A DNA stretch of 64,000 nucleotides from Mariniblastus sp. (GCA_031409295.1 JANNWZ010000154.1:19-64018), one strand, 5' to 3'; shown: positions 1 to 16,254, counted from the first letter of the stretch. Notes: generated from the sequence alone by a model not told the origin. A program made the numbers and translations.

Positions 1-3000
1 TGTACAAGTTGCCGACGGCGTGAACACCACCGCCAACGCGGGCACCGCCAGTAACGGTGTTGCCAGTGACATCGACTCGATTTAACGCAGCAATACCGGT
101 CGACTGTTCAACGAGTATTCCTCCGCCATCGTTGCTAATCGAGCCGCCGGTGATTCTCACATCGGTCAACGCAAGGCTGCCCGTAGCTCCATCCACTTCA
201 ATCGCGCGGTCGATTCCACCGCCGCTAATAATCGTGCTGGTCATGCCAGCACCGAAGATGGTCACCGTTGTCTGTATGTCAAAGTCGCCTGTCAAGCTGC
301 CGTCCTCGCCTGTTCCAGCGATTGAGATCGTATACGTTCCGGTATCTAGAAAGATTCCGCCGCCACCTGCGGTGTTATTGGATGCGATCACTGCTTCGCG
401 AAGTGAGATCTTGCCGTCGGTTCCTTTGTTTGCTAACAGGTTCGCTATTGAGGTCGTGGTGCCGTCGACGACATCGCTAAACGTATCGACAATGAGTGCC
501 GACGCGTTAGCTGTTGTGCTACTAAACTCGGATGAGTTACCGGTTGCCACATTCGTCGCCGTCGCCGTGATATTGGCTCCGACAGCAACCGTGGCGCTGA
601 ATTGCTCGACGAACGATGCGTTTCCGCTGGCGTCGGTATGAACATTTCGAAAACCCAGGTAAGTCTGACCTTCGTCGCCGCTGGTGTTCGCATAAAACTC
701 GACGCGAAAGGTCGTGTTAGCGAGACTGTTAATTGTGCCGGACACTGCAAACTTGCCACTGGCGTTGATGAAGGCGCCCGTTAGTACGGGAAAGTTTTGT
801 AGGTTGTTCGCACCGGTATCGGCATCGCCCGCGTCGTTGGCGGTCACGCCGGTTGTGCCCAAGTCGATGCCAAGTCCAGCATTTCCATAAATCGAGTTAC
901 CGTACATGGCGTTGCCGGTGCCGGTGCCGGTAATGGCAATTCCGGCTGTGCTGCTTCCGCCGGTCCCAGAGTTGGTGATCGTATTGCCTTGTCCAGTCGC
1001 AGTTCCGCCAATCGTGTTGTTAGAGGCAGTGCTAAGAATCTGAATTCCGTAACCCGTATTCCCGGTGGTGACGGAACCGGTTGAATCGCGACCGATAAAA
1101 TTTCCTTGAATTATCGTCCCAGAAGAAACTCCATTGAGCGAAATTCCATTGCCTGTGTTTCCGAGGATGACGTTGTCGATGATGCTCGTGTTATCGCCGC
1201 CAGATGTGATTCGCACGCCATCACCGGCGTTGCTTAGTACAGTCGAACCGTTGGCTCCCAAACCGATCCAGTTGTTGCGAATGATATTGCCGTCGCTTGG
1301 CTCGGAAGCAATCTCAATTGCTTCACCGCCAGTCGTCCCACCGATAATATTGCGATGCGCGGTAGTCAAGCCGCCGATCGTATTGAACGTCGCCCCGCTC
1401 TCGATTCTAACGCCGTGAGTAGTGTTACCCAGAGCGGTGTTGCCCGTTGCGGATGTTCCAATGTAGTTGCCGGCGACCGTGTTATTGCTGGCGCTGGCAC
1501 CCGATAGGTTGATGCCAAAGGTGCTATTGCCGCTGATGATATTGCGATCGAAACTTCCTGTGCCACCGACGGTGTTGTTGGAAGACAGGAGGGTGATCCC
1601 AGAACCTTGATTGGCAATCACAGCCGTACCGGCTGCGTTCAGACCAATGGTGTTTCCTTGAATCGTGGTGCTGGAAGAAGTGGCGTCTGCATAAACTCCG
1701 AAGGAAGCCGTTCCCGATGTTCCAGTACCGGAGATGACGTTTCCAGCACCGCTGGTCGAACCACCGAGTGTATTCCCCGAAGCGGACCAGAACCCGACTC
1801 CGTACCACTGGTTTCCAAGGTCCGCCGAGCCAGTGTTGCTGACTCCAATGTAGTTGCCCAGGATCGTATTGGACGAACCGTTCCAGACCGAGACACCAAT
1901 ATTGTTGTTTCCGGAAATGACGTTGCGATTGGCAGTCGAGGTACCACCAATCGTATTGCTGGAACCGCCTGCGATGTTGATTCCAATATCGTTTCCTGCG
2001 GCAGCCGTGCCGGCTTGTGTTGTTCCGATGTAGTTGCCGACGATCAGGTTGCTAGAGCTTTGGATCTCGATGCCATCACCGGTAAAGCTGCGAATGACGA
2101 GACCGCGGATCGTGCTGCCGCTGCTGCCTGCCGTTAATCGTAAACCGTCGGTATAAGTACTGTTGCCGTTCAAAACGATTAGCGGCTGTCCTGAGTATCC
2201 TGATTGCGTTGTTGCGTCGATGGTGACGACGTGATCGATATCTGCTAATTGTGCAGTTGTTAGCGTGATCGTTTGTACGCCCGTACTAATATTGAAAACG
2301 ATCGTATCGGCACCTGCGTTTGCTTTGGCATCGATGAGGGCTTGGCGGAATGAGCCGGCACCGCTGTCATTGGTGTTGGTGACGGTGTAGGTTGCAAGCA
2401 GCCCGCCGTAGGATTCTTGGAAGTGGAGGCCGAAGGCGATTTCGGTTTCGATGGTGGCGGCGGGCTTCCAGCCGGCCGATTCAATGTCGATGGAATTCAC
2501 AGAATGGTAGCCGATGCCACTGGAATTCACAGGCTGGAAGCCTATGCCACTGACATACTCCAAGCTCCAATCGCCGCCGCGAGAAAGATCGCCGGTTTTG
2601 TCCGTCGAGGCGGCTACGTCGGCGTTGGTTAATCGAGCAACCGTGTCAATAAACAATTGACCCTGTGGTCCGGCGGCGACGTCGCAACCGTAGATGAGAA
2701 TATCACCAGATTCGTTCAGCGCCCTACCCCAAGCCTGCAAGTCGGCCACGTGGCTTTGGATATTTCCAGCAGTTAACCAGGAGTCGCCCAGCTGGATCAT
2801 GCCATCCGCACCGTGGGAGACAATATGAATCGCGTCGAGGTTGGTGTATTGGGTCAAGGCGTTGTTGATTTGCTCGAAACCGCCTTGGCCCTCCTCCAGA
2901 ACAACAAAGGAGATCGATCGACCCAACGAGTGGGCTTGGAATTCCAGGTCGGCAATCAATGTTTCAGAATTGTATAGGCCGGCTTGGACGAAGGCCAATT

Positions 3001-3505
3001 CGTAGTGCGAACTATAGGTCAGCGCTGGTGGAATGGCGGCTGACGTCAAATGAGTTTCCGCGATGGTTGAATTCAGGCTGGAAGTCTCCCCGGTCAATTC
3101 GAACTGCTGGATTCCTGACGTAGATAATTCGACGTTGGCAACTCCGTCGTCAGCCACTGTCAATTCGCCGGTAGGCCGGTTGGCATCGTTCGGCAGCACA
3201 TTGATCGAATGCAATTCGGCGGGTGGCCAAAACGCGCCACCGGTTATGAATCCAGTGTCAAATGCCTGCACTTGATCAGACAGTTGAAGCAAATGATTGA
3301 TTTGCTGATCAACTTGCCCGCCGTTGTCCGGCACTTGGTCGGGAACGAATAGGCTCGATAGCCCGGTAGCATCAAATAGGATGCGGTCTTCCAAAGATTC
3401 CAATAAAACGGACTTCAGCAATTGTTCCGTCGGTGGCGTGGGGCTGAACGAGCTGACCATGAAGTGCCAACCGTGCTGAAAGAGGCTATTTAAGGACGGG
3501 TTCAT
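1..3505 (-). CDS. Giant surface/secreted protein (N-terminal part; runs off the window's left edge): LEPR-XLL-like motif, DUF4347 domain, parallel beta-helix repeats, CSLREA-like motif
   Basis: Absent from the ORF track because there is no stop in the window. Manual minus-strand translation from ATG at 3505 gives MNPSLNSLF...LLESLEDRILFDATG..., then DUF4347 hallmarks (IHIVSHGADG, DILIYGCDVAAG, VAASTDKTG...GGDWSLE), TYTVTNTNDSGAGSFRQAL, many GN(Y/F/W)IG / NTIGG / RNVISGN repeats, NNLQNFPVLT and GKISLREAVIASN. The frame is consistent at both ends and at spot checks in the middle. Confidence 0.9.
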   Translation of the reverse strand, partial: MNPSLNSLFQHGWHFMVSSFSPTPPTEQLLKSVLLESLEDRILFDATGLSSLFVPDQVPDNGGQVDQQINHLLQLSDQVQAFDTGFITGGAFWPPAELHSINVLPNDANRPTGELTVADDGVANVELSTSGIQQFELTGETSSLNSTIAETHLTSAAIPPALTYSSHYELAFVQAGLYNSETLIADLEFQAHSLGRSISFVVLEEGQGGFEQINNALTQYTNLDAIHIVSHGADGMIQLGDSWLTAGNIQSHVADLQAWGRALNESGDILIYGCDVAAGPQGQLFIDTVARLTNADVAASTDKTGDLSRGGDWSLEYVSGIGFQPVNSSGIGYHSVNSIDIESAGWKPAATIETEIAFGLHFQESYGGLLATYTVTNTNDSGAGSFRQALIDAKANAGADTIVFNISTGVQTITLTTAQLADIDHVVTIDATTQSGYSGQPLIVLNGNSTYTDGLRLTAGSSGSTIRGLVIRSFTGDGIEIQSSSNLIVGNYIGTTQAGTAAAGNDIGINIAGGSSNTIGGTSTANRNVISGNNNIGVSVWNGSSNTILGNYIGVSNTGSADLGNQWYGVGFWSASGNTLGGSTSGAGNVISGTGTSGTASFGVYADATSSSTTIQGNTIGLNAAGTAVIANQGSGITLLSSNNTVGGTGSFDRNIISGNSTFGINLSGASASNNTVAGNYIGTSATGNTALGNTTHGVRIESGATFNTIGGLTTAHRNIIGGTTGGEAIEIASEPSDGNIIRNNWIGLGANGSTVLSNAGDGVRITSGGDNTSIIDNVILGNTGNGISLNGVSSGTIIQGNFIGRDSTGSVTTGNTGYGIQILSTASNNTIGGTATGQGNTITNSGTGGSSTAGIAITGTGTGNAMYGNSIYGNAGLGIDLGTTGVTANDAGDADTGANNLQNFPVLTGAFINASGKFAVSGTINSLANTTFRVEFYANTSGDEGQTYLGFRNVHTDASGNASFVEQFSATVAVGANITATATNVATGNSSEFSSTTANASALIVDTFSDVVDGTTTSIANLLANKGTDGKISLREAVIASNNTAGGGGIFLDTGTYTISIAGTGEDGSLTGDFDIQTTVTIFGAGMTSTIISGGGIDRAIEVDGATGSLALTDVRITGGSISNDGGGILVEQSTGIAALNRVDVTGNTVTGGARVGGGVHAVGNLY
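2454..2550. repeat. Planctomycete-type REP/REPIN palindromic element embedded in frame in the DUF4347 coding sequence
   Basis: The arms GGCTTCCAGCC (2463-2473) and GGCTGGAAGCC (2532-2542) are perfect reverse complements. There is also a 30-bp imperfect tandem duplication, tggaattcacagaatggtagccgatgccac / tggaattcacaggctggaagcctatgccac (2491-2550). Confidence 0.75.
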
Positions 3506-4080
3506 CGAATATTGGCAGTTTAAAGGTACGAGGTTTTTGTTTGCGCCGAACAATACTGGCGAGCAGCCGATTGGCACCCTAAAAGTTGATGAAGCGGAAT
3601 TTGCGCAGTCTGTTCCGGTCGAACTTTACCCCACGGATTGCGACGTGTGAGACGGGTCAGGAAAAAAATAGGGAACCGGTAAACTTTGCCGATTGGAATG
3701 TGCTGATCGTACGGCTAGCACGCGTTGAGTGCCGTCCGAATCGTTCTCCGATAGCACGGTTTAGTTTGGCGAGCTCAAGCAATGGAAACTCTGAGGTTGG
3801 ATGGCAAGGAGATACTGCGCCTCGCCAGGAAAACGAATCGAGGATGCTCAATTCGCTGCAGCAATGTCCGGGACCAGGCTGATTTCTCCGTCTCCTTGCC
3901 GAGAGTGTCAGAATTGGCAATTGCTAGCCAGCAGTTTGTAAAACTATTCGGTTTGTATTGTTTGTCGTGTTCCTTCGAACCGAAAACGGGCGCGAACTCG
4001 CTTTCCCTATTATCCGCACGACACGGATTGGGCGAATAACAGACAGACGCGATAAGCCAATTGTGCTGGTGGAGATCATT

Positions 4081-6477
4081 GTGCCTTCTAAATCAATCAC
4101 GACGAAATATACTGTGGCAACCACCGTACTGTTTGGTTGTATGTTTGCCGGCTCAGAAACCTTCGCCCAGTCGCCGACACTTCAACCGGCAAACTCAACG
4201 GTATTCTCTGGGCGGCCAATTCAGTTTCCTTTAATGGATTCCGCTAGTAAAGTTCCAGCCAAGGCGCCAACGATCCCCAACGCCGCCCAGTTGGAATTAT
4301 CGTTCCAGAGTCTACCGCCGCTTCCGAATCCAGGTGCTGTGCCATCGGCTCAAGATCCAGCGGCGTTGCAAGGCCGATCGCCGTTTCAAAATCTATCAGG
4401 GATTCAGGAACCACTTACGTTTCAGGATCTTCCAAAGTTTCAAGATCTTCCGCAGCTTCAAACACCTCCGGTCGTTCCTGTCGCGAAGAAGCAGTTCGAT
4501 TTTACAAACGACTTTGCCCAAGCCTACCAGAAAATCGGAACTGCACCGCCAGTATCAAACCCACCCGAGTCATCGCCACTGCGAAACCAGTTTGGGCCAC
4601 AACATTCGCCCGAATCCGTCTCGGCTCACAAAAACGAGACGGTGGTGGACGCAACGGAATTGCCGTCACTCGCCCCGACAGTGCCCGCCGTCCCGCCAAT
4701 AAACGATCGTATTGCCAGACGAACCGACGCGGACGCCGCGGCCGATGATTTCTCACACCATCGCGATGAATCCGGCGAACAAGGCGCTAAATCCGGCCTA
4801 CAAAGCGATAAATCCAGTGATGCACCGGTAGCCGTTGAATTGGATGAAGTCGTCAAATCGACTCCCAATGCGATCGCTGCGACACCTGTCAATCAATTCG
4901 ATCCAGCGACGTGGAACGCCGATCCGTTGTGGTGGAAACAAGTCGTCAATCAGGCTTTGAATCCTGACAATAAAACGCAAACGATCGACACGAATACGCT
5001 GGTCTTGGAGGCTTTAAAGAACTCTCCTCGAATTCAAGCGATCAGTCAGACCCCCTTGATTCGCGAATTGCAGGTCATCGAGGCCGATTCAGATTTTGAT
5101 CCCGTTTCCTTTGTGCGAAGTAATTTTGAGGATCGCAATGACCCGGTTGGCAACACGTTGACGACGGGTGGTGCGCCTTTTCTCAAAGACAACATTTGGA
5201 GCGGTGAATTTGGGCTGCGTAAGAAAACCCGAACGGGTGCGTCCGTTCAAATGAGCGAACGGCTGGGCTTCAAAAACAGTAACTCGACGTTTTTTCTGCC
5301 GCAAGATCAGGGTACAGCCACGTTGGCTTTGAATGTCACACAGCCGTTGATGCGCGGTCGTGGAAAGTACTACAACCAAAGTCAGATTTTGATCGCCCAA
5401 GCGACCGGGGGTGCCGCCTGGAATACGTTTAGCAATGAACTGCAAGACGAATTGCAAGAGATCACGCAGGCGTATTGGAGATTGTATTATGATCGCAGTC
5501 TGTATTTGCAGATGAAACGCAATGTCGAGCGGGGCGAACAAATTCTGCTGATGTTGGAAGGCCGCAGCGAACTGGATTCACTGCCCAGCCAAATAGCGCG
5601 CGCCCGATCGGCGGTCCAGTCCCGTAAAACCGACCTCGCCAATGCGTTCCGTGACGTGCGCAACGCGGAAACCGAGATTCGCCGTCGGATTGCCGATCGC
5701 GAGTGGTTGGCGGCGCAGTCGATCGAGTTGCTGCCGGTCGAACTGCCTCAAGCTGAACCCTTTGAAATCCCACTTGAGCAGGTAGTCTTGACTGCGTTGG
5801 AACAGCGTCTGGAAATCAAAGAAGTCCTGCAACGGGCGAAGATCGCGGGGATTCAGCGCGATGTCAGCACCAATGAACTGTTGCCGGAATTGTCATTGTT
5901 GATGGGCACTTACGTCAGTGCACTGAAAGGGGAATCGGCGCTGGGCCAAGCGATTACCGGTCAGTTTGGCGTCGCGCCCGGTTACAACTTTGGTGTGCAG
6001 TTTGAAATGCCCTACCAAAATCGGAGTGCCCGCAGCCGGTTGGCCCAACAAAAACTCCAGGTGGCGAAAATCAAGGCGGAAGTCGACGAGACGATCCAGA
6101 AAGTCGTCGCGGAATCGCAAATATCTCTGCGGCGGGTAAATTCCGCGGGACAGACCTTGCTCGCCGCTGAGCAAGCGATCATTGCCTCCCGCGCCGATTT
6201 GCAACAGAATTATCAACGCTGGGAAGCGTTCGGATTGGTGGAAGGAGATCTTGCTGACGGTCAAAACCCGACAACTTTACTTAATCAAGTGCTGGATTCC
6301 CAGGAACGACTGGCGGCGGCAGAATTAATCTATGCCCAAGCGGAATTGGACCTCAAAAATTCTGAGACTGCCTTGCAACGAACGATGGGGACACTACTGA
6401 TGCACGAAAATATCGACTTCAGTATGCTCACCAGTGGCGATCAGCCGGAAATGAAGTTGGAGAAAAAAGAAGACTGA
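4081..6477 (+). CDS. TolC-family outer-membrane efflux/secretion channel with a long Pro/Gln-rich N-terminal extension
   Basis: ORF 3958-6477; GTG at 4081 precedes a signal-peptide-like stretch. The C-terminal ~480 aa has OEP features: ALKNSPRIQA, LNVTQPLMRGRG, ELQEITQAYWRLYY, NELLPELSL, GVQFEMPYQNRSARS, VLDSQERLAAAE, LQRTMGTLL. Confidence 0.88.
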   Translation: MPSKSITTKYTVATTVLFGCMFAGSETFAQSPTLQPANSTVFSGRPIQFPLMDSASKVPAKAPTIPNAAQLELSFQSLPPLPNPGAVPSAQDPAALQGRSPFQNLSGIQEPLTFQDLPKFQDLPQLQTPPVVPVAKKQFDFTNDFAQAYQKIGTAPPVSNPPESSPLRNQFGPQHSPESVSAHKNETVVDATELPSLAPTVPAVPPINDRIARRTDADAAADDFSHHRDESGEQGAKSGLQSDKSSDAPVAVELDEVVKSTPNAIAATPVNQFDPATWNADPLWWKQVVNQALNPDNKTQTIDTNTLVLEALKNSPRIQAISQTPLIRELQVIEADSDFDPVSFVRSNFEDRNDPVGNTLTTGGAPFLKDNIWSGEFGLRKKTRTGASVQMSERLGFKNSNSTFFLPQDQGTATLALNVTQPLMRGRGKYYNQSQILIAQATGGAAWNTFSNELQDELQEITQAYWRLYYDRSLYLQMKRNVERGEQILLMLEGRSELDSLPSQIARARSAVQSRKTDLANAFRDVRNAETEIRRRIADREWLAAQSIELLPVELPQAEPFEIPLEQVVLTALEQRLEIKEVLQRAKIAGIQRDVSTNELLPELSLLMGTYVSALKGESALGQAITGQFGVAPGYNFGVQFEMPYQNRSARSRLAQQKLQVAKIKAEVDETIQKVVAESQISLRRVNSAGQTLLAAEQAIIASRADLQQNYQRWEAFGLVEGDLADGQNPTTLLNQVLDSQERLAAAELIYAQAELDLKNSETALQRTMGTLLMHENIDFSMLTSGDQPEMKLEKKED

Positions 6478-6645
6478 GGTTTATCGCGAATGTAACGATT
6501 GTGTAGTCGGCTGGTAGAGATAAAACCAAAAAATGGTCTGCGGCGAATGAGTTGGAGTGGAATGTGAACCTAGGTTATCAGGGAAACCAGACATTCGCTG
6601 GTTATCAAGTAACCTCTGTTCAACGTTTTCACCGCCGATCCTCCC

Positions 6646-7479
6646 ATGAAATCCATTTGCCTTGCACAGCGTCCATTTTCGTTCAACCAAGCGATACTGT
6701 TGGTTGTGGGATTCTGCTTGTTCCTGTTTGCCTTGACATCCGTTGCCGAAGCACAGATCGATGGTTTTACCGAACCGTTTCGCCGCATTGAATTGTCCAG
6801 CGACGAATCGGGCGCCATTGCTGAACTGTTGGTCGAGGAAGGTCAATCGCTCGAAGAAAATGAACCGGTAGCCCGACTCGATGCGCGTGTTCAGGCATTG
6901 CAATTGGAAATCGCGGAACAGTTGGCTCACAGTCAGAGTCAATTGATCGCGGCCGAAGAGGGATTGAGTAAACGACAAGCAATCAGTGATAAATTGGCCC
7001 AGCTAAAACACGAAGGGCACGCCAGTCAATCAGAAATTATTCGTGCTGAGATGGAATTGTCGCTGGCCAAAGCAAAACTATTATCGGCTAACGAGGATTT
7101 GGCAGTCGGAGAAATTGAACGCCGTCGAGCCGCAGTACAACTTGAACGTCGCACCATTGTCGCCCCATTCAAATCCATCGTAGCCAAGATTCACGCACGC
7201 GAAGGAGAGTTTTTGTCGCCCCTGAGACCGGAAATCGTCACGCTGATCCAGGTCGACAAGTTGATCGCCAAATTCGCTGTACCGAGCACGCAAGTTACCT
7301 CGTTTGAAGTTGGCAAAAAATTCAATCTCCAATTGGGGAGTGACCGAACGGTACTGGCGGAAGTATTGAGCGTGGGCGTCGAAACGGATGCTCAAAGTGG
7401 AACGGTTGAAGTCAAATTAGTTATTGAGAATCCGGAACTGGAGTTTCGCAGCGGCGAACTCTGCACCTTGACTATCTAA
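6646..7479 (+). CDS. Membrane fusion protein / periplasmic adaptor (HlyD/RND MFP family)
   Basis: N-terminal hydrophobic segment, lipoyl half-motifs (GAIAELLVEEGQSLEENEPVARLD; IVAPFKSIVAKIHAREGE), coiled-coil hairpin and C-terminal beta-barrel (DAQSGTVEVKLVIENPELEFRSG). Confidence 0.88.
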   Translation: MKSICLAQRPFSFNQAILLVVGFCLFLFALTSVAEAQIDGFTEPFRRIELSSDESGAIAELLVEEGQSLEENEPVARLDARVQALQLEIAEQLAHSQSQLIAAEEGLSKRQAISDKLAQLKHEGHASQSEIIRAEMELSLAKAKLLSANEDLAVGEIERRRAAVQLERRTIVAPFKSIVAKIHAREGEFLSPLRPEIVTLIQVDKLIAKFAVPSTQVTSFEVGKKFNLQLGSDRTVLAEVLSVGVETDAQSGTVEVKLVIENPELEFRSGELCTLTI

Positions 7480-7553
7480 ACTTTTTTCAACTGGATCGAG
7501 TTTCGTCATTTCGTTAAACCGAACACGGTTGGCAACCTAGCATCGAAAAAAAC

Positions 7554-9470
7554 ATGCTGAACTCAGGGACGAGTCCGATTAACAGGGTACTGCCGATCAA
7601 GGTGGTTCGATCGACAGCGGCCCCTTCGTCGGCGTCAGCGCCGCAGTTTGAGAATCAGACTCTGGTGCGGCAATTGGAATTGGCGATTGCTACCAGCAGC
7701 TCGCTCAACCATTTAATGTCCCAGTTGAATCGAATCATTGGTGAACAGACGGAGTGTCTGGCGTTGTGGATCGCTGCGCGCGACGAACAAGGTCAGTTCG
7801 CAGACTTTCAGCCGCTGTCAGAAGAATCGTCATTCGCCGTCTGGGATTTGGCACGCGAAGTAGTTCCCTCGTTGGTCGGCCATCTGCTTCAATCCAGTCA
7901 AATCTGCTCGACGCCTCTCCCCTGCAGTTCTTTAGTTCAGCTGGTCGCGGCGCCTCTACGCTCGCAATCCAAGCCCGAGACACCCATCGATTTCGTATTG
8001 TTGGGATGTTTTGAAAGCAGCAATCAATCCACCCTGCGATTGCAATGGCTTATGGGATTGGCGACTCAAGCGATCACCAACTGGTTTCAGGCTCAAGCCT
8101 TGACTCATGTGGAAACCAAACAGCGTGGCCTATCGGATTCACTGAAACTGATTCGCGACCTGGATCGGACGACCAGTCGAACGCAAGCGGCAATCCTGAT
8201 CGTGAACCAGTTGCGCCGGCTGTTGAGCGTCGAACAGGTGGCGTTGACACTCAACGGGCAGCTGATCGCCGTCTCGGATGTCGAACAAATCGATCAGTTC
8301 AACGAATCCAATAAACTGATTCAGGCGGCCTGCAATCAAACTTTGCGGACGGGAGAACCCGTGGCGTTTTTGAATTCAACTGCACAAGTGACACCGGCTC
8401 AATTGGCGCTGGCAGACTACTGTCGCGCACATCGTATCGAAGCCTGTTTGAATCTGCCACTCAGTCTGTCCGTGGGCGGAACCAATCAGGCCACGCCAGA
8501 AACAATCGGCGGACTGTTGATCGCCGGTTCCGCAGATCGATTGGGAAACCGCTCATTTGTTGAGTACCTGGTGCAACTGACGGGGTTGATTGGTGGGCAT
8601 TTGGAAGTCGTGTTGCGGGCCAATCGAAGCTTCAAAGAAATCGCCGTTCAGAAAATCCAAACACTGCGGAAACATCGTTGGAGAAAAGTTGCCTTGTTGG
8701 CGGCGTCGATCGTCGCAATTGTGTTGTCGATGCCAGTTCCCTATCGAATCGCTTGCGATTGTGAAATTCAACCCGTTTTACGCCGGTTCGTCGCCGCTCC
8801 CTATGACGGAATTCTGGAACGAGGGCTGGTGAAAAACGGCGAAATTGTGGCGAAAAATCAATTATTGGCACAACTCGATGGACGCAATCTGCGAATCGAG
8901 TTGGCCGGTTTGCAAGCGGAATTGGGAGGGGCGAAAAAACGACGCGACGCCGCATTGGCCGGCGGCGATATCGCCCAATCGCAGATCGCCCGGAGTGAAA
9001 CCGAACGCTTGGAAGCAAAAATATCGTTGTTGGAGCAACGCACGCTCAATTTGGAAGTGCGCAGTCCGATCGACGGAATCATTATCAGTGGCGATTTGGA
9101 GAAAGTCGAAGGTGCGCCCTTAGAAATGGGACAAACACTGTTTGAAGTCGCTCCAGCGGAACAAATGGTTGTCGAAATCGCCATCCCGGAAACGGAAATT
9201 CAATATGCCAAACCCAACATGATTGTGACGCTGAAACTGAATTCATTTCCGTTTCGCACTTGGTCGGGAAAGATTGAGAGTATCCATCCGAGCGCCGAAG
9301 TTGTCGACAGCGAAAGTGTGTTTGTGGCTCAGGTCATCATCGACAATTCTGAAAATTTGTTGCGACCAGGCATGGAAGGATCGGCGAAAGTAAATTCCGA
9401 GTGGTCGCCGCTGGGCTGGAATCTGTTCCACCGCTCATGGGAAGCAGTTCGTTACTGGACGATTTGGTAA
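7554..9470 (+). CDS. GAF-like domain(s) + single TM + HlyD-type MFP fusion
   Basis: The N-terminal ~370 aa has GAF-like segments (LALWIAARDEQG; EACLNLPLSL...IGGLLIAG), then a TM (VALLAASIVAIVLSMPV), then MFP motifs (RFVAAPYDGILERGLVKNGEIV, VRSPIDGIIISGD, NSENLLRPGMEGSAKV). Confidence 0.82.
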   Translation: MLNSGTSPINRVLPIKVVRSTAAPSSASAPQFENQTLVRQLELAIATSSSLNHLMSQLNRIIGEQTECLALWIAARDEQGQFADFQPLSEESSFAVWDLAREVVPSLVGHLLQSSQICSTPLPCSSLVQLVAAPLRSQSKPETPIDFVLLGCFESSNQSTLRLQWLMGLATQAITNWFQAQALTHVETKQRGLSDSLKLIRDLDRTTSRTQAAILIVNQLRRLLSVEQVALTLNGQLIAVSDVEQIDQFNESNKLIQAACNQTLRTGEPVAFLNSTAQVTPAQLALADYCRAHRIEACLNLPLSLSVGGTNQATPETIGGLLIAGSADRLGNRSFVEYLVQLTGLIGGHLEVVLRANRSFKEIAVQKIQTLRKHRWRKVALLAASIVAIVLSMPVPYRIACDCEIQPVLRRFVAAPYDGILERGLVKNGEIVAKNQLLAQLDGRNLRIELAGLQAELGGAKKRRDAALAGGDIAQSQIARSETERLEAKISLLEQRTLNLEVRSPIDGIIISGDLEKVEGAPLEMGQTLFEVAPAEQMVVEIAIPETEIQYAKPNMIVTLKLNSFPFRTWSGKIESIHPSAEVVDSESVFVAQVIIDNSENLLRPGMEGSAKVNSEWSPLGWNLFHRSWEAVRYWTIW

Positions 9471-11704
9471 TGATTTCGCCAGACAATCCACCGCCGTCAA
9501 CCGACCCACGTGAGCAATGGCTCGATGCGCGACTGACGTTAAGGTCCGAATTGAAGTTTGACGTGCGGACGATTGGCACTGAAACGGTCGTTGTCGTTGA
9601 AGATCCGGTGCGCAGCAAATTTTTTCAAATCGGGACATCGGAGTACCGACTATTGGCTGCGCTGGATGGTCAAAAAACCGTGCGCGAAATTCTGGAACAA
9701 GTCGTTCCAATTTCCGGTGTTACCAATCCAACAACGATTTCACCTGCAATCGACAATAGGGTAACGCCGATGGACGAAAGCCAGGCGATCCGGGTCAGCC
9801 AATGGTTAGTGCAGAATAACCTGGCGTACAACCCCACCGTTGATAACAGTAAACGGATGGACGAACAATCGCGACAGTCTCAACGGGCAAAACTTTTTGG
9901 CTGGCTCAATCCGATTTCCTGTAAGATCAAACTCTGCAATCCGAATCGAATACTAGGGCGTTTACAGCCGTTTACGCAATGGTTTTTCTCACCGTGGGCA
10001 TTGTTAGTCTGGTTCGTGGTGGGTGGCTATGCCATGAACATTTTGTATTCCGATTGGGACAAAATGGGCTCGGCGTCGGTCGGAATTTTCTCGGGCTATA
10101 GCTGGATCTGGTTGCTGCTGAGTTGGATCGGGTTAAAAATAATTCATGAAACCTCCCACGCTGTGGCCTGCCGACGATACGGTGGTGAGGTTCCCGAAGC
10201 GGGCGTGCTGTTGTTGCTGTTTACTCCGATGGCTTACGTCAATGTCACGTCGATGTGGCGATTTGCCAACCGTTGGCAGCGCATCGTCGTGTCGGTGGCG
10301 GGGATGTATGCGGAACTGTTTGTTTCGTTCCTGGCGTTGATACTCTGGCGACATGATCCCGGTGTAATCGGAGACGTGGCGTTCAAGGTCTTCATGATGG
10401 CCAGTGTTACGACGATTTTGTTCAACGCCAATCCACTGATGCGTTTTGACGGGTACTTCATCCTCTCGGACTTGCTGAATATTCCTAATTTGTACACCAA
10501 AGGAACGCGTTGGTTTGGGGATCGATTCAAGCACTATTTTTTTGGCACTCCGAAGACTCCCAATATTTATCTGGTTGCCGAACGGCGTTTCGTGCAGGTC
10601 TATGGCGTACTGGCTTGGTTTTGGAAAACGACGATCAGTCTGAGTTTGATCATCGGAGCTGGAGTGTTGTTTCATGGCGCCGGCATAATTCTGGCGGCAC
10701 TGGGCGTGATTTTGTGGTACGGGATGCCGGCGTGGCAACAAATTCGCTGGTTTCGAGCGGCCCGTGTCAATCGAACTATTAACCAACAGCGTCTGGCAAC
10801 CAGTTGTCTTGCGAGCGGATTACTGCTGATCGGAATGTTCACCGTCTTGCCTGCGCCAGGCACAAAATCGGCCCCCGCCATCGTTCGATATTCGGACGAG
10901 CAGGTCTTGCGCGCGGCCGCCGATGGATTCATTCGCCAGATTTTGGTGCGCAATGGCCAGGCGGTAACGCGTGGCGAAACCCTGATCGTGTTGGAGAATC
11001 CGCAATTGGTTTTGGACGTCGAGGAATTGGAGCGACTGGCCGCAGAAGCAACCATTGAAGCGCGAATAAAAACCCGGGCCGGTGAATTGGTCCTCGCACA
11101 AGTCGCAGCGGAAAGGAACGCCAGCCTGTTAACCCAGTTGGCCGAAAAGCGGCAATTGGTTGCCCAGCAAACGGTCACAGCGCCATTCGATGGATTTGTG
11201 TTTCAACGAAAACTCGAAAACCGAATCGACAGTTTCGCCCGGGCCGGAGAAGCACTGCTGTCGATTGCCCACGCCGAAACCAAGGAGGTAGTGGTCTCGG
11301 TCGATCAACGCGATCTGGAATCGATTCAGGGTAAAGAAGGGATTTACCTGAGAGTCGCATTTCCGGGACAACCGCTATTGAGGTCGAAGTTGACTCGCGT
11401 GAATCCTCGCGTTTCCAACCGTCTGCAACACGATTCATGGGGTGCAAGCCTGGGTGGCCCCTTGCCAGTCCAGCCGGTGGCAGACGAGTCTCAGCGACAG
11501 GAAGTACAATTTGAATTATTAGATCCTCGGTTTACCATGGATCTGGAACTGGAACCGGCGATGAGCGAATCGCTATTTGCCGGTCAACGTGGTCGAGCTT
11601 TTTTTGTGACGAATCGACAATCGCTAGGCAGTTACCTTTATTTGGCAACAGCCGACTGGCTAAAACAGAAGATCGAACTGGCGATTCAAACAGCGACATT
11701 TTGA
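9470..11704 (+). CDS. PqqD/RRE-like N-domain + site-2 protease (M50) membrane domain + HlyD-type MFP fusion
   Basis: TAATG overlap with the upstream stop at 9468-9472. HETSH (HExxH, 10145-10159) and NANPLMRFDG (10424-10453) are present, with multiple TM segments. The C-terminal MFP has LRAAADGFIRQILVRNGQAVTRGETL and VTAPFDGFV. Confidence 0.85.
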   Translation: MISPDNPPPSTDPREQWLDARLTLRSELKFDVRTIGTETVVVVEDPVRSKFFQIGTSEYRLLAALDGQKTVREILEQVVPISGVTNPTTISPAIDNRVTPMDESQAIRVSQWLVQNNLAYNPTVDNSKRMDEQSRQSQRAKLFGWLNPISCKIKLCNPNRILGRLQPFTQWFFSPWALLVWFVVGGYAMNILYSDWDKMGSASVGIFSGYSWIWLLLSWIGLKIIHETSHAVACRRYGGEVPEAGVLLLLFTPMAYVNVTSMWRFANRWQRIVVSVAGMYAELFVSFLALILWRHDPGVIGDVAFKVFMMASVTTILFNANPLMRFDGYFILSDLLNIPNLYTKGTRWFGDRFKHYFFGTPKTPNIYLVAERRFVQVYGVLAWFWKTTISLSLIIGAGVLFHGAGIILAALGVILWYGMPAWQQIRWFRAARVNRTINQQRLATSCLASGLLLIGMFTVLPAPGTKSAPAIVRYSDEQVLRAAADGFIRQILVRNGQAVTRGETLIVLENPQLVLDVEELERLAAEATIEARIKTRAGELVLAQVAAERNASLLTQLAEKRQLVAQQTVTAPFDGFVFQRKLENRIDSFARAGEALLSIAHAETKEVVVSVDQRDLESIQGKEGIYLRVAFPGQPLLRSKLTRVNPRVSNRLQHDSWGASLGGPLPVQPVADESQRQEVQFELLDPRFTMDLELEPAMSESLFAGQRGRAFFVTNRQSLGSYLYLATADWLKQKIELAIQTATF

Positions 11705-11759: not shown

Positions 11760-12584
11760 ATGACAAGCACTCCCTCCCAGCCTGACCATCAATCCCTGAT
11801 CAAAAAAATTGAAGCGCTGCGTCCTTGGCATCACGATATTCAGATTACTTCAGACCTTGGTACTGGCGAAGTATTTTCCCCCACCCGGGCGTTATTACCG
11901 AAGGACAATGAAGGTGTCAGCTTGATCTCGCCACGCGATCGTTTTTTGCAAACGATCGATGGGTTGTATCCCAATACCATGCAGGGAAAACGCTTTCTCG
12001 ATTGCGCCTGTAATGCGGGCGGCTATTGTTTTTGGACGCGGGAACGAGATGCGGAGTTGTCGGTTGGTTTCGATGTTCGCGAACACTGGATCAACCAAGC
12101 CCGGTTTGTTCAACAACATCGTCAGGTGGCGCCGGTGGATCGAGTCGAATTCCACGTACTGGATTTGTATGACCTGCCGAAAAAAGATATCGGCCGGTTT
12201 GACATGACTTACTTCAGCGGCATTTTTTATCACTTGCCAGATCCGATTACCGGGTTGAAACTGGCGGCGGATATCACGGACGATATTTTTGTTTTGAATA
12301 CTGCCGTCAAGATTGATGAAAACAATCCGACCGGCCTAACGATGTCCCATGAAAGTCGGACCTTGGTGATGTCGGGAGTACATGAGTTGGCGTGGTTCCC
12401 CAATGGCCCGGAATGCATGTACGAGTTGTTGCGTTGGTTGGGATTCGTGGAATTCAAGATTACCCTCAACATCTCCAAGCGCGATATGTTGCGTCAGCGT
12501 GTCGAGATGATCGCCTCGCGGGAAAAAGGTCGTTTGACTGGCATCAAAGGCGATCCATTCCCACCGCCACGAGCTCGCCCGTAG
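11760..12584 (+). CDS. Class I SAM-dependent methyltransferase (CmoB/DUF1698-like)
   Basis: PWHHDI N-motif, GKRFLDCACNAGGY motif I, GFDVRE, GRFDMTYFSGIFYHLPDP. Confidence 0.8.
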   Translation: MTSTPSQPDHQSLIKKIEALRPWHHDIQITSDLGTGEVFSPTRALLPKDNEGVSLISPRDRFLQTIDGLYPNTMQGKRFLDCACNAGGYCFWTRERDAELSVGFDVREHWINQARFVQQHRQVAPVDRVEFHVLDLYDLPKKDIGRFDMTYFSGIFYHLPDPITGLKLAADITDDIFVLNTAVKIDENNPTGLTMSHESRTLVMSGVHELAWFPNGPECMYELLRWLGFVEFKITLNISKRDMLRQRVEMIASREKGRLTGIKGDPFPPPRARP

Positions 12585-12696
12585 GCTGGGCTAAAGCCGA
12601 TATCCAATGAACAAAGATCGTCCAAGCGTGAACCTGAGGTAAACGCGAGGTCCGGTCGACGAACCCAGTTCGTCAACAGTTGACCCGGCGAACAGC

Positions 12697-15156
12697 TTAC
12701 ACAGCACTCAAGTTGGTGAATGCCAATTTGAATCGCTTCTTTCCCAGCTTCGGGAAATCGATGGTGGCCATTCGCTTCTGTCCCTCGCCGGTAAGACTGA
12801 CGATCTTTCCTTCGCCGTACTCCGCATGTACGACCGCCATGCCGATTTCAAAGCTGTTGGGATGCAATCGGATATAGGCACTCGCCTGTTGCTCGACCGC
12901 CAGTTGAGCGGCGGTCATCAATCGTGGAAAACCGCCCAGTCTCGATTCGGCAATCACGTCGGTTTGTTTACGAGACACGGGCCGGGAAACCCGATAGTCG
13001 CTGACTTCTTCGGCGACCGAATCATCCTCCAACTGATCCAAGGTCAATTCGTCGTTTTCCGAAAAATCATCAACGCCGGGCACGCGATGGGCAAAACCAA
13101 CGGTCCTCTCGGCAGAAGGCAGGGCATGAATGTCGATCGACGGTAATCCATCGTTCATATAGGGATCAAGCCCTTGCATCGCATCACCGTAATCATCGTC
13201 ATGATAGCCACCGTAATTGGCCGGCTCAAACACATCCATCAGATGTCGGGGAAGTTCCATCAGAAACCGGCTGGCGATTGCCGGCCAATGGCTGCCGCGG
13301 CGGAACCGATTCAGGCAGCGGCTGATTTGCAACTCGGATTCGGCACGCGTGATCCCGACGAACAAGAGGCGACGCTCTTCTTCGATTTGTTCATCGTCGA
13401 CGGCACTTCGTTCATGCGGCAAGATCCCTTCTTCCAAACCGACGATAAACACACACGGGAATTCCAACCCCTTGGCGGCATGCAACGACATCAATGTGAC
13501 ATACTCGGCGGACGAATCCCAGACATCCGTATCCGATACGAGGGCGGCTTGCTCGAGATACCGCTCAAGTCCACCTTCGTCACCGAAGTCGCGTTCGAAT
13601 TCTTGTGCGGCAACGATCAATTCATCGACGTTGTTCGCTCGTTCAAAGCCCTCTTCACCGCCATCTTCGGTCAGCCAGTCGCGGTAACCGGTTTCTTCCA
13701 AAACGGCTTTGATGATCGTGGGAACTGCTTCGCCGCTGAGCACTGACAACCGCTCAATCATCGCGACGAACTTTTGGATTTTGGCAGTGGGTGCTGCCGA
13801 GATCGTCGAAATTTCATCGCACCGACCGGCGGCCTCCAGCATGGAAATTTCTCGCTCCAGGGCGAATTCGTAAATTCGATTGAGCGTGACTCGGCCGATT
13901 TTTCGCGGAGGCACATTGATGACGCGTTCAAATGCCACGCCATCCGCAGGATTGTTCACCAGATGCAAATAGGCAATGACATCCTTGATTTCCTTGCGTT
14001 GATAAAACTCGTGGCCCCGCACGACTTGATAGGGAATGTTGCGCCGTCGCAACGCGTGCTCCAGTGCGCGGGACAAGTAGTTGGTTCGGTACAAGATCGC
14101 ATAATCGCTAGCGCGATGTTGTTGCTTTTGCAGCGCCAACGAAATCGAATCCGCAATATCGGCCGCTTCGTCCTCGGGTTTATGATACGTCACCAAGCGA
14201 ACCGGGTTGCCTTCCGCATTGTCGGTGATCAGTGACTTTTGCTTGCGGCGGACGTTGTTGGCAATCAATTGATCGGCCACGGCCAACACCGATTTCGTGC
14301 TGCGATAATTCTGCTCCAGACGAACGACCTTGACGTTGGGGAAATCCCGTTCGAACTCCAAAATATTGTTTAGATTCGCTCCCCGCCAGCCGTAAATCGA
14401 TTGGTCTGGATCGCCCGTAACAGCCAGATTCTGCAAGTCATAATTGAGCAGCCGGATCAATTGATACTGCGCCACGTTGGTATCCTGATATTCATCGACC
14501 ATCATATAAGCGTAACGACGATCGAGCGATTCTCGCAGCTCCGGAGATTGGCGCAGGAGATCGACCGCATGCAACAACAGGTCATCAAAATCAACACCGT
14601 TGGACAACCGCAACAGTTTCTGATATTCGGGATAGACTTTTCCAGCGATCGTATCGAGTACATGTCCGGGACGAGGTCGAAATTGTTCGACCGTCACGCC
14701 CGCGTTTTTGATGTTGCTGATTTCGTTGCCCAAACGGTCGGGAGTGTAATGCCGAAGATCGACTTTGACATTGGTGATGGCTTGTTTGACGAGTTTTTTT
14801 GAATCACTGGAATCAAAGATCGAAAAATTTTCGGCTAGTCCCACTAGTCGCGCATGATTTCGCAACAGGCGCGAGCAAAACCGGTGGAAAGTCCCGGTCC
14901 AAGTTTGATTGTCGGGGGCGTACACCGCCAATCGTTTGCGCATTTCTTCCGCAGCTTTATTGGTGAACGTCAGGGCTGCAATATTGTACGACGGGATGTC
15001 GTGCGCGATCATGTTGGCGATGCGATGGGTGATCACGCGAGTCTTGCCGCTGCCCGGGCCAGCCAGGATCAACATCGGACCTTCGATTTGGGAGACCGCG
15101 GCTCGTTGTTGTTCGTTCAGCGAGCTCTCATCGTTGCGGGATGAATCAAAATCCAT
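12697..15156 (-). CDS. pcrA: ATP-dependent DNA helicase UvrD/PcrA
   Basis: LNEQQRAAV, LAGPGSGKT, ALTFTNKAA, VDEYQDTN, GDPDQSIYGWRGA, LEQNYRST, LMSLHAAKGLEF, EEERRLLFVGITRA and a C-terminal Tudor-like domain. Confidence 0.95.
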   Translation of the reverse strand: MDFDSSRNDESSLNEQQRAAVSQIEGPMLILAGPGSGKTRVITHRIANMIAHDIPSYNIAALTFTNKAAEEMRKRLAVYAPDNQTWTGTFHRFCSRLLRNHARLVGLAENFSIFDSSDSKKLVKQAITNVKVDLRHYTPDRLGNEISNIKNAGVTVEQFRPRPGHVLDTIAGKVYPEYQKLLRLSNGVDFDDLLLHAVDLLRQSPELRESLDRRYAYMMVDEYQDTNVAQYQLIRLLNYDLQNLAVTGDPDQSIYGWRGANLNNILEFERDFPNVKVVRLEQNYRSTKSVLAVADQLIANNVRRKQKSLITDNAEGNPVRLVTYHKPEDEAADIADSISLALQKQQHRASDYAILYRTNYLSRALEHALRRRNIPYQVVRGHEFYQRKEIKDVIAYLHLVNNPADGVAFERVINVPPRKIGRVTLNRIYEFALEREISMLEAAGRCDEISTISAAPTAKIQKFVAMIERLSVLSGEAVPTIIKAVLEETGYRDWLTEDGGEEGFERANNVDELIVAAQEFERDFGDEGGLERYLEQAALVSDTDVWDSSAEYVTLMSLHAAKGLEFPCVFIVGLEEGILPHERSAVDDEQIEEERRLLFVGITRAESELQISRCLNRFRRGSHWPAIASRFLMELPRHLMDVFEPANYGGYHDDDYGDAMQGLDPYMNDGLPSIDIHALPSAERTVGFAHRVPGVDDFSENDELTLDQLEDDSVAEEVSDYRVSRPVSRKQTDVIAESRLGGFPRLMTAAQLAVEQQASAYIRLHPNSFEIGMAVVHAEYGEGKIVSLTGEGQKRMATIDFPKLGKKRFKLAFTNLSAV

Positions 15157-15376
15157 TTCTTAAGTCCTGAGGGTTAAACCAGCAAAGAAGCCGTCCCTGA
15201 TCAAAAACTAAAAGGGGCGTTAAATGCTAGCAGGTCTTGGGACTGCCTTCTCGACGATTCCCACGTTCATGATATATTGTTTTTTTCCGCAGACAAGGAT
15301 TGATTGGTTCACAGCGAACTCATTGATCCGGCAAATGTCACTATATAAAATCACTCTTTTTTGGGAGGGACCCCTG

Positions 15377-15652
15377 ATGGCCAAGACGCGCATTCCGTTA
15401 AGTGCTGCTGAAGAAGAAACTCGCAATCTCCGCGAGAAACTGGACTTGAGCACAGCCGAGATTGGGTTGACCGTTCGGACAACCAATTGCCTGGAAGAAA
15501 AAGGAATCTTTACCGTCCGCGATCTGCTCAATACCACGCGGGCCGATTTGTTAAGCATTTCCAACTTTGGTGAAAAGACCTTGGAAGAGGTTTATAAATC
15601 GTTGGAAGTGATTGGATTCTGCCGACCCGGTTACGAAGTAAAACCGCGCTAA
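15377..15652 (+). CDS. Stand-alone RNA polymerase alpha C-terminal domain protein (91 aa)
   Basis: IGLTVRTTNCLEEKGIFTVRDLL...DLLSISNFGEKTLEEV matches the alpha-CTD helix-hairpin-helix signature (LxVRsxNCL...NFGxKSLxE). There is no alpha-NTD. GGAGG lies upstream of ATG 15377. Confidence 0.85.
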   Translation: MAKTRIPLSAAEEETRNLREKLDLSTAEIGLTVRTTNCLEEKGIFTVRDLLNTTRADLLSISNFGEKTLEEVYKSLEVIGFCRPGYEVKPR

Positions 15653-15686
15653 AGATTCCTGTTGCCGATTCGAAAACGACAATGTT

Positions 15687-15721
15687 CCGTGGCCTATGTT
15701 CCTGGCATGCCACGGTTTTTT
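15687..15721 (+). terminator. Candidate intrinsic terminator after the alpha-CTD gene (second copy 289 bp downstream)
   Basis: Stem CCGTGGC/GCCACGG followed by T6. The loop is long (15 nt), so the call is weak. Confidence 0.4.
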
Positions 15722-15774
15722 GAAGTGGAGTGGCTCGACACGGCGTTGGATGTTTTGTTGCGCCATTTAAAACC

Positions 15775-15872
15775 TGACCACGAATTTCACGAATCACACG
15801 AATTCATTGAGAATTTTTTTTCGTAAATTTCCCAATCGTCTTCATTCGTGTGATTCGTTCGATTCGTGGTCA
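15775..15872. repeat. Iterated palindromic element (second copy 16064-16161)
   Basis: Arms TGACCACGAA/TTCGTGGTCA and GAATCACACGAAT/ATTCGTGTGATTC, with internal (C)ACGAA iterations. Confidence 0.8.
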
Positions 15873-16254
15873 ACAGGTCTCCACGATACGGTGTAAGTGA
15901 TTGGATTTTGCCGCCCCGGTTACGAAGTAAAACCGCGCTAACGATTACTGTTGCCGATTCGAAAACGACAATGTTCCGTGGCCTATGTTCCTGGCGGGCC
16001 ACGGTTTTTTGAAGTGCAGTGGCTCGACACGGCGTTGGATGTTTTGTTGCGCTATTTAAAACCTGACCACGAATTTCACGAATCACACGAATTCATTGAG
16101 AATTTTTTTTCGTAAATTTCTCAATCGTCTTCATTCGTGTGATTCGTTCGATTCGTGGTCAACGGGTCTCCACGATACAGTGTAACAACGGAAAGCCGCG
16201 ACTAGGTCGAGGAACGCCAGTTGGTTAAACCCGACAATATCGGTTAACGACGCA

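Follow-up and report, generated by a model that had tools for sequence, protein, structure and literature searches.

We analysed a 64,000-nucleotide stretch of DNA from Mariniblastus sp. (GCA_031409295.1), hereafter the window, which corresponds to bases 19-64018 of contig C154 (JANNWZ010000154.1) of genome G000; the contig begins 18 nt before the window. One end of the window carries four plus-strand genes coding for a TolC-family outer membrane factor (OMF), two membrane fusion proteins (MFPs) and a third MFP fused to a predicted intramembrane protease. This row, hereafter the cassette, is divergent from a minus-strand gene that encodes a giant protein. A preliminary description of this DNA had proposed that the cassette is an undescribed secretion system that exports the giant. 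Open reading frame (ORF) and domain calls confirmed the gene order, the divergent giant gene and the translational coupling of the last two genes, as the TAA of the 638-aa MFP overlaps the ATG of the fusion (TAATG at 9468-9472). The features are as follows.

2..3505, minus strand: giant LEPR-XLL/DUF4347 protein, candidate cargo (Pfam)
2546..2998, minus strand: DUF4347 domain (PF14252), residues 194-344 of the long ORF (Pfam)
3359..3406, minus strand: N-terminal LEPR-XLL-type leader motif LLESLEDRILFDATGL (NCBIfam NF012209, below cutoff)
4081..6477, plus strand: TolC-family OMF (Pfam OEP)
6646..7479, plus strand: small MFP, 277 aa (Pfam HlyD_D23, HlyD_3)
7554..9470, plus strand: tandem GAF, one transmembrane (TM) segment and MFP, 638 aa (Pfam HlyD, AlphaFold2 and Foldseek)
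9470..11704, plus strand: fusion of a PqqD-like RiPP recognition element (RRE), a site-2 protease (M50) and an MFP, 744 aa (NCBIfam, Pfam, AlphaFold2 and Foldseek)
9542..9829, plus strand: RRE-like domain, candidate leader-binding (AlphaFold2 secondary structure, Foldseek)
10145..10159, plus strand: HExxH zinc-binding motif (HETSH); H226, E227 and H230 invariant in alignments A1 and A2
10424..10453, plus strand: NxNPLxxxDG, second catalytic motif of site-2 proteases; N319, N321, P322, L323, D327 and G328 invariant

No ORF of the window joins a Walker A motif with the signature of ATP-binding cassette (ABC) proteins, none is both polytopic and of the size of a resistance-nodulation-division (RND) pump, and the operon contains no major facilitator superfamily pump either. 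The absence of an ABC or RND pump noted in the preliminary description was thus borne out, both in the window and in most homologous loci. The domain assignments of that description (OMF, three MFPs, GAF, RRE-like, M50 with intact motifs) likewise stood up to Pfam, NCBIfam and AlphaFold2 (AF2) combined with Foldseek.

Residues 1-477 of the fusion, modelled with AF2 (pLDDT 86.6, pTM 0.79), are predicted to form a domain in which three strands precede three helices, and a helical membrane core with a beta-hairpin. The top Foldseek match of the membrane core was the M. jannaschii site-2 protease 3b4r (probability 1.0, target-normalised TM-score 0.51), and Pfam M50 (PF02163) matched the fusion with 21.7 bits, under its gathering score of 27.2. 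HExxH was retained in 34/34 planctomycete and 11/11 proteobacterial homologues. With both catalytic motifs placed in a polytopic core of site-2 protease fold, the modelled protein is predicted to be a site-2 protease of the M50 type. Its HlyD part spans residues 487-672. The best NCBIfam matches of the protease part were families that act on ribosomally synthesised and post-translationally modified peptides (RiPPs), namely the daptide HExxH protease NF041824 (146 bits, cutoff 300) and YydH/LiaK NF058609 (27.8 bits, cutoff 225). Membership in either family was rejected, as both scores fall far under the cutoffs and no daptide biosynthetic genes lie nearby.

The N-terminal domain of the fusion matched leader-bound TbiB1 of a lasso-peptide system (5v1v; probability 1.0, target-normalised TM-score 0.65), as well as SuiB and CteB. 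These models point to a winged-helix, PqqD-like RRE fold, for which leader binding itself is only predicted. The NCBI Prokaryotic Genome Annotation Pipeline (PGAP) calls homologues of the fusion 'PqqD family protein'; Pfam PqqD gave no match on the window fusion and a weak one in a single paralogue. A hidden Markov model of the planctomycete RRE region recovered all 11 proteobacterial fusions that we inspected, with E-values from 5e-12 to 3e-5.

The ORF of the OMF reads from 3958 or 4081 to 6477, and the start at 4081 yields a plausible Sec signal peptide. Pfam OEP matched it in two stretches (1.1e-16), and its orthologues in loci L001, L004, L007, L012 and L016 are 57-84% identical. Between the signal peptide and the OEP core lies a low-complexity extension of about 300 aa rich in Pro, Ala, Ser and Gln (4081-5100); a similar extension is C-terminal in a paralogous OMF on contig C59. 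The small MFP, anchored by an N-terminal TM segment at residue 10, matched HlyD_D23 and HlyD_3 as well as TIGR01730 (97.3 bits, over the cutoff). In the 638-aa MFP, the HlyD domains occupy residues 403-615 and follow a TM segment at residue 377. Pfam found no match in the N-terminal 375 aa of this protein, in which GAF was not detected by sequence, and matched GAF directly in its paralogues from the same genome. The AF2 model of residues 1-379 (pLDDT 78.6) retrieved the tandem GAF structures 3ibj, 3lfv and 1ykd with a Foldseek probability of 1.0; the GAF matches, at E ~1e-8, were PDE2A (E 9e-9), PDE5A, PDE6 and CyaB2. In all three adaptors, a stretch of about 60 aa rich in residues of coiled-coil type separates the lipoyl halves. 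The operon therefore combines a TolC-family OMF with HlyD-family adaptors, as type I secretion systems (T1SSs) do (Pfam OEP, HlyD_D23, HlyD_3), and PGAP labels these proteins 'efflux RND transporter periplasmic adaptor subunit'. Both the RRE and the GAF domains lie N-terminal to the membrane spans and carry no signal peptide, a topology which suggests that they are cytoplasmic and that the three MFP parts are periplasmic.

The giant gene has a probable start Met at 3505, its longest ORF begins at 3577, and its reading frame runs off the end of the contig, where the C-terminal part is lost. From the probable Met the protein comprises at least 1168 aa. This start is supported by an 86%-identical orthologue in locus L001 that begins at the same Met. 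Pfam detected DUF4347 (4.6e-46) and Beta_helix matches. The preliminary description had seen no obvious Sec signal peptide, and indeed neither a hydrophobic signal peptide nor a TM segment is predicted. The 1192 aa present on the contig contained no match to RTX repeats. The leader motif LLESLEDRILFDATGL begins about 35 residues past the Met. NF012209 (LEPR-XLL) scored 15.4 bits on this protein (E 0.01) against a cutoff of 17, and 19 bits on its paralogue on contig C146. The motif can also be aligned to that of giants named LEPR-XLL or DUF4347 by PGAP, and the same N-terminal motif starts cassette-adjoining giants in E. coli, Burkholderia, Eleftheria, L004, L007, L012, L016, L069 and L072.

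Throughout this genome, the pattern LE.R.[LIVMF][LFYM] is strongly N-terminal, as it was found within the first 160 residues of 44 ORFs compared to 10 occurrences elsewhere. In about 40 large proteins of the genome, none of which has a hydrophobic signal peptide, a basic N-terminal stretch leads into [FY]ExLExRxLLA. The variant LEDR[IV]L[YF]D/S occurs in only three proteins (on C154, C146 and C232), and is paired with DUF4347 in the C154 and C146 giants. LEPR-type leaders may comprise two subtypes with different partners. At the opposite end, where a signal common to the candidate cargo proteins was sought, four proteobacterial giants have a possible 'SL(T/A)(A/S)Q' C-terminal helix, which was not found in planctomycete giants.

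A metagenome-assembled genome of Mariniblastus (Pirellulaceae, Planctomycetota) is the closest public relative; locus L001 of that genome is syntenic and its proteins are 84-96% identical. The row of small MFP, GAF-MFP and M50-MFP was kept in all 17 Pirellulaceae loci recovered, and is therefore not a chance arrangement. An OMF and a divergent DUF4347 giant accompany the row in L001, L004, L007, L012 and L016. The OMF stands slightly further off, behind a pseudouridine synthase, in L008, L013, L015 and L017, and no OMF is adjacent in L005 and L009. A 1177-aa ORF upstream in L008, L013, L015 and L017 was considered as a hidden RND pump and rejected, as Pfam identified it as AAA_27/SMC (SbcC-like) with a separate OMF beside it. 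No ABC gene was found within 10 kb of the 17 orthologous loci, except for two unrelated ABC ATPases in L016. At the scale of the phylum, an M50-MFP match was obtained in 31 of the 121 Planctomycetota genomes sampled, and a divergent DUF4347 or LEPR-type giant is present in L001, L004, L007, L012, L016, L060, L069, L072 and L073. The survey of M50-HlyD neighbourhoods advocated in the preliminary description recovered the GAF-HlyD partner, giants and, mostly, an absence of ABC genes, but the adjacency to giants proved patchy in Planctomycetes.

The genome under study encodes six M50-MFP paralogues, on C154, C188, C95, C81, C74 and C59. Three of the five copies outside the window adjoin a GAF-MFP gene (C188, C81 and C59), and a LEPR-type neighbour stands at three of the six modules.

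C188:66882-75942: LEDRRLLA-type 805-aa protein, SecA-like, GAF-MFP, M50-MFP
C81:6026-11516: PilZ, GAF-MFP, M50-MFP, small MFP
C59:1-10971: GAF-MFP and M50-MFP module, small MFP, divergent 900-aa OMF, LEPR-type 625-aa neighbour
C95:9950-12241 and C74:8441-10858: further M50-MFP paralogues

PilZ proteins lie upstream of paralogous modules. Two LEPR-type proteins were also observed downstream of the orthologous module in two Pirellulaceae metagenome-assembled genomes (L006:6090-14038 and L012:14316-22206); the L006 protein belongs to the thermolysin family of M4 proteases, has an FTP propeptide and bears a LEPR motif in place of the expected signal peptide.

A tblastn search of PLSDB with the fusion returned 72 proteobacterial records, from which 11 loci representing 11 genera were inspected. 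In 11/11 loci, a large repeat protein encoded on the cassette strand was counted directly upstream or within the cassette, with A. ramasamyi entered below as convergent downstream.

E. coli IncF plasmid: 4460-aa Ig-like giant with DUF4347; TolC, MFP, HlyD, M50-MFP
A. brasilense Sp7: 'DUF4347 domain-containing protein', ~4195 aa; TolC, MFP, HlyD, M50-MFP
B. anthina: 'DUF4347 domain-containing protein', 3302 aa; TolC, MFP, HlyD, M50-MFP
T. marina: 'LEPR-XLL domain-containing protein', ~4033 aa; DUF3467, HlyD, M50-MFP, MFP, TolC
M. ciceri (Mesorhizobium): 10,518-aa giant; DUF3467, MFP, HlyD, M50-MFP, SecA-like
Methylosinus: 8,847-aa giant; DUF3467, MFP, 'PqqD family protein', SecA-like, MFP, TolC
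Alisedimentitalea: 8,149-aa giant; HlyD, M50, SecA
Eleftheria: VCBS giant, 3718 aa, between the small MFP and HlyD, M50-MFP
M. gryphiswaldense: ELWxxDGT repeat protein, 492 aa; TolC, MFP, HlyD, M50-MFP
Phyllobacterium: 1412-aa HrpK-domain protein; HlyD, M50-MFP
A. ramasamyi: RTX-type M10 protein, convergent downstream; TolC, MFP, HlyD, M50-MFP

The E. coli giant carries the motif ALESRQLFDGAAL; its N-terminal sequence RFALESRQLFDGAAL is followed by a DUF4347 domain with the IHILSHG...LLYGCDV core found in the window giant. The corresponding N-terminal motifs are LLALEPRVVYDASV in the Burkholderia giant and AWALEARLMFDAAA in the Eleftheria giant. An ABC exporter occurs near only one of the 11 loci, in Phyllobacterium, as a separate T1SS pair located 3-7 kb away on the opposite strand, and a SecA-like gene was present in three. 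The whole 69-kb E. coli cassette plasmid encodes neither an ABC exporter nor a SecA-like protein. The cassette is carried by natural E. coli plasmids in 24 of 5426 complete genomes. The E. coli plasmid NZ_CP081687.1 also encodes a diguanylate cyclase and has a truncated EAL-domain gene just upstream of the giant gene (8006-9388; 43149-43319), which hints at a control of the E. coli cassette by cyclic di-GMP.

In both Planctomycetes and Alphaproteobacteria, many cassettes are headed by a small DUF3467 protein encoded between the giant gene and the adaptors (L068:7549-7917, L069:7626-8015, and the T. marina, M. ciceri and Methylosinus plasmids). This protein, which is absent from the window copy, could be a chaperone or a targeting factor.

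The preliminary description called the system undescribed, which is too strong, as the row of M50-HlyD, GAF-HlyD and HlyD, with or without OEP, was published from in silico work in 2015 (PMC4452313). Kamneva, Poudel & Ward (PLoS One 10:e0129066) found a secondary SecA_DEAD protein co-encoded with Peptidase_M50/HlyD, GAF/HlyD and HlyD/biotin-lipoyl proteins, and sometimes with OEP. They described the module as related to T1SS, with no ABC transporter and an unknown biological role, and proposed that SecA_DEAD is the ATPase or motor and the M50 protein a possible membrane pore; some SecA paralogues were unlinked from these partners (PMC4452313). Our literature search found no functional follow-up of this study, nor any paper that links LEPR-XLL or DUF4347 to the cassette.

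The window contains the published combination of an M50-HlyD gene beside GAF-HlyD and a further HlyD gene, and no secondary SecA_DEAD gene was found near the module on C154. Besides the canonical SecA (1237 aa, on C16), the genome encodes two SecA-like paralogues, on C188 and C156. The C188 SecA-like ATPase (626 aa; SecA_DEAD, PP_bind, P-loop_SecA) adjoins an M50-MFP module. The second one (C156:3056-8428, 644 aa, 49% identical to that of C188) adjoins CpaF/TadB/TadC-like tight-adherence pilus genes and has no MFP module beside it. The preliminary description overlooked these secondary SecA-like ATPases; its caveat on energy, for which an unlinked or unknown partner would be needed, remains valid. 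In the phylum-level set, 8/20 loci have a SecA-like gene next to the cassette, compared to 0/17 orthologues of the window copy. L068 and L070 share the order DUF3467, GAF-MFP, M50-MFP, OMF, SecA-like and small MFP. In a maximum-likelihood tree, the window M50-MFP clade was sister (100/99) to the L068/L070 clade, and the next neighbour was entirely SecA-linked. On this tree, the SecA-less state of the window copy looks derived, a polarity that hinges on the midpoint root.

Taken from Planctomycetes to E. coli plasmids, these observations suggest that the cassette probably exports or processes the giant surface proteins that adjoin it. Synteny across phyla likewise favours the functional link to the DUF4347 giant put forward in the preliminary description. 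More specifically, and with a rough probability of 0.6, we propose that the window holds a SecA-unlinked version of a conserved trans-envelope cassette, one that looks like a T1SS without its ABC transporter and would move the neighbouring giant, the mechanism being read from sequence and predicted structures. The three adaptors would build a periplasmic duct docked on the TolC-like OMF; the adaptor ring may be hetero-oligomeric, as put forward in the preliminary description, and the M50 domain may act as the conduit through the inner membrane. The giant, a DUF4347 protein devoid of a Sec signal, would be recognised by the cytoplasmic RRE through its N-terminal LEPR-XLL-type leader. The intramembrane metalloprotease fused to the RRE would cut this leader off, and the giant would be transferred to the cell surface or displayed there. 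The process may be gated by the tandem GAF on a small ligand, and for energy it would rely on a source outside the operon, with the housekeeping SecA, one of the two SecA-like ATPases (C188, C156) and the proton-motive force as candidates. Whether the cassette amounts to a distinct secretion type is a more tentative matter. An RRE, site-2 protease and adaptor fusion that reads and removes the LEPR-XLL leader, in a one-step export free of ABC proteins and powered by a dedicated or housekeeping SecA-type ATPase or by the proton-motive force, is a possibility to which we give a little less than an even chance.

Several observations weigh against export by the cassette itself. Many cassettes, including those of the window and of E. 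coli, have no dedicated motor, and we know of no site-2 protease that acts as a protein-conducting channel. The giant's C-terminus is missing from the contig, leaving room for a C-terminal T1SS signal. RTX repeats are typical of ABC-dependent T1SS cargo. Some proteobacterial LEPR-XLL/DUF4347 giants also bear such repeats at their C-terminus (PMC10868602; PMC13723633). Within this genome, about 40 LEPR-type proteins face only six modules, and the orthologous loci L005, L008, L009, L013, L015 and L017 have neither a giant nor a directly adjacent OMF. Furthermore, a LEPR-type protein was adjacent by regular expression in 3/20 phylum-level loci (4/20 with the near-motif of L073), compared to 10% of random 20-kb windows. 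As stand-alone evidence, adjacency in these 20 loci was set aside as unconvincing against this background, while the proteobacterial loci gave a strong signal.

The main rival explanation takes the cassette for a processing, retention or release device that would hold or cleave the N-terminal LEPR-XLL/DUF4347 end under second-messenger control, as LapD/LapG act on LapA, while the giant leaves by an unlinked ABC-driven T1SS or by Sec. An M50 protein is a protease and not a pump, which fits this scheme, as do the cassettes devoid of a motor, the RTX repeats on giants elsewhere, and the parts of second-messenger type in or near the modules (tandem GAF, PilZ, and the cyclase with its EAL remnant on the E. 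coli plasmid). Yet the cassette includes an OMF and three adaptors, the components of which a duct is made, and ABC exporters are missing from the entire E. coli plasmid and from within 10 kb of most loci. Moreover, the predicted cytoplasmic location of the RRE and GAF domains would place recognition ahead of export. On our analysis, such a device is unlikely, with a chance of the order of one in five. Export by the cassette could also serve another cargo, namely a small RiPP-like peptide of which the cassette would be the leader-dependent exporter or maturase, its adjacency to giants being incidental. The closest NCBIfam relatives of the protease part are RiPP leader peptidases (daptide_HExxH, YydH/LiaK) and the RRE fold matches lasso- and sacti-peptide RREs, but the family scores are far too low, no locus encodes modification enzymes, and no short ORF recurs in the ORF tables, which covered ORFs of at least ~80 aa. 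In addition, giants adjoin the cassette on the same strand in every proteobacterial locus inspected. This reading is very improbable. We give equally little weight to an ordinary tripartite efflux or T1SS adaptor set for drugs or metals, with its pump encoded elsewhere and the M50 fusion as an accessory. PGAP does name the adaptors as RND subunits, and crude motif and TM screens counted ~31 ABC-like and 17 RND-sized ORFs elsewhere in the genome. However, no pump is linked in the 17 orthologous, 20 phylum-level and 10/11 proteobacterial loci, so ordinary efflux is unlikely, and the partners that are conserved are a giant protein, DUF3467 and a SecA-like ATPase.

Downstream of the cassette, 11760-18503 encodes unrelated proteins of housekeeping type: a TIGR04290-like methyltransferase, a UvrD/PcrA helicase, a BamB-like PQQ beta-propeller protein and a MerR/B12-binding regulator. 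The methyltransferase (11760-12584) was rejected as a member of the module, being syntenic in the closest relative L001 only.

Type I secretion driven by an ABC protein is considered the main route by which giant adhesin-like proteins arrive at the Gram-negative surface. The cassette retains a TolC channel and adaptors, and has in place of the ABC pump a predicted leader-binding intramembrane protease, joined only sometimes by a SecA paralogue. If it does export its neighbour, it would represent a new secretion route, would give the LEPR-XLL N-terminal tag and the DUF4347 giants a pathway, and would explain secondary SecA genes in Gram-negative bacteria. Because the cassette is found on natural E. 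coli plasmids and in Azospirillum, this question is directly testable in tractable organisms.

Like the T1SSs of giant adhesins and RTX proteins (HlyB-HlyD-TolC; LapBCE-LapA with LapD/LapG; SiiCDF-SiiE), the cassette sets a TolC-family OMF and HlyD-type adaptors beside a giant repeat protein with no Sec signal, and its sensor domains of second-messenger type are reminiscent of LapD. In contrast to these systems, it has no ABC protein, three different adaptors instead of one, one of them fused to an RRE and a site-2 protease, and the conserved tag of its candidate cargo is N-terminal rather than a C-terminal signal. Peptidase-containing ABC transporters and leader-dependent T1SSs such as CvaAB-TolC offer another parallel, as the exporter would carry a protease that recognises the N-terminal leader of its cargo and cuts it. 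Here, however, an RRE and an intramembrane M50 metalloprotease replace the C39 cysteine protease, the ABC domain is missing, and the cargo has thousands of residues. The RRE-dependent intramembrane leader peptidases of RiPP systems (NF041824; NF058609) are the best family matches and likewise place an RRE ahead of a leader peptidase. The window protein differs from them in its fusion to an MFP, its place in an OMF/MFP operon, its scores under the family cutoffs, and the absence of RiPP modification enzymes or short precursor genes. A further close relative is the locus described by Kamneva and colleagues (e.g. Methylobacterium extorquens AM1 META1p2399-2402), which has the same three protein types, sometimes OEP and never ABC, is likewise found in Planctomycetes and Proteobacteria, and was also proposed to have a secretion-related role. 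The window copy differs by having no linked SecA_DEAD gene and by an OMF that opens the operon. Absent from the 2015 paper are the RRE domain, any pairing with LEPR-XLL/DUF4347 giants, and SecA-less cassettes such as that of the E. coli plasmid. Therefore, the gene row itself was already published, but we found no printed account of the link to giant proteins, of the RRE domain or of the motor-less cassettes.

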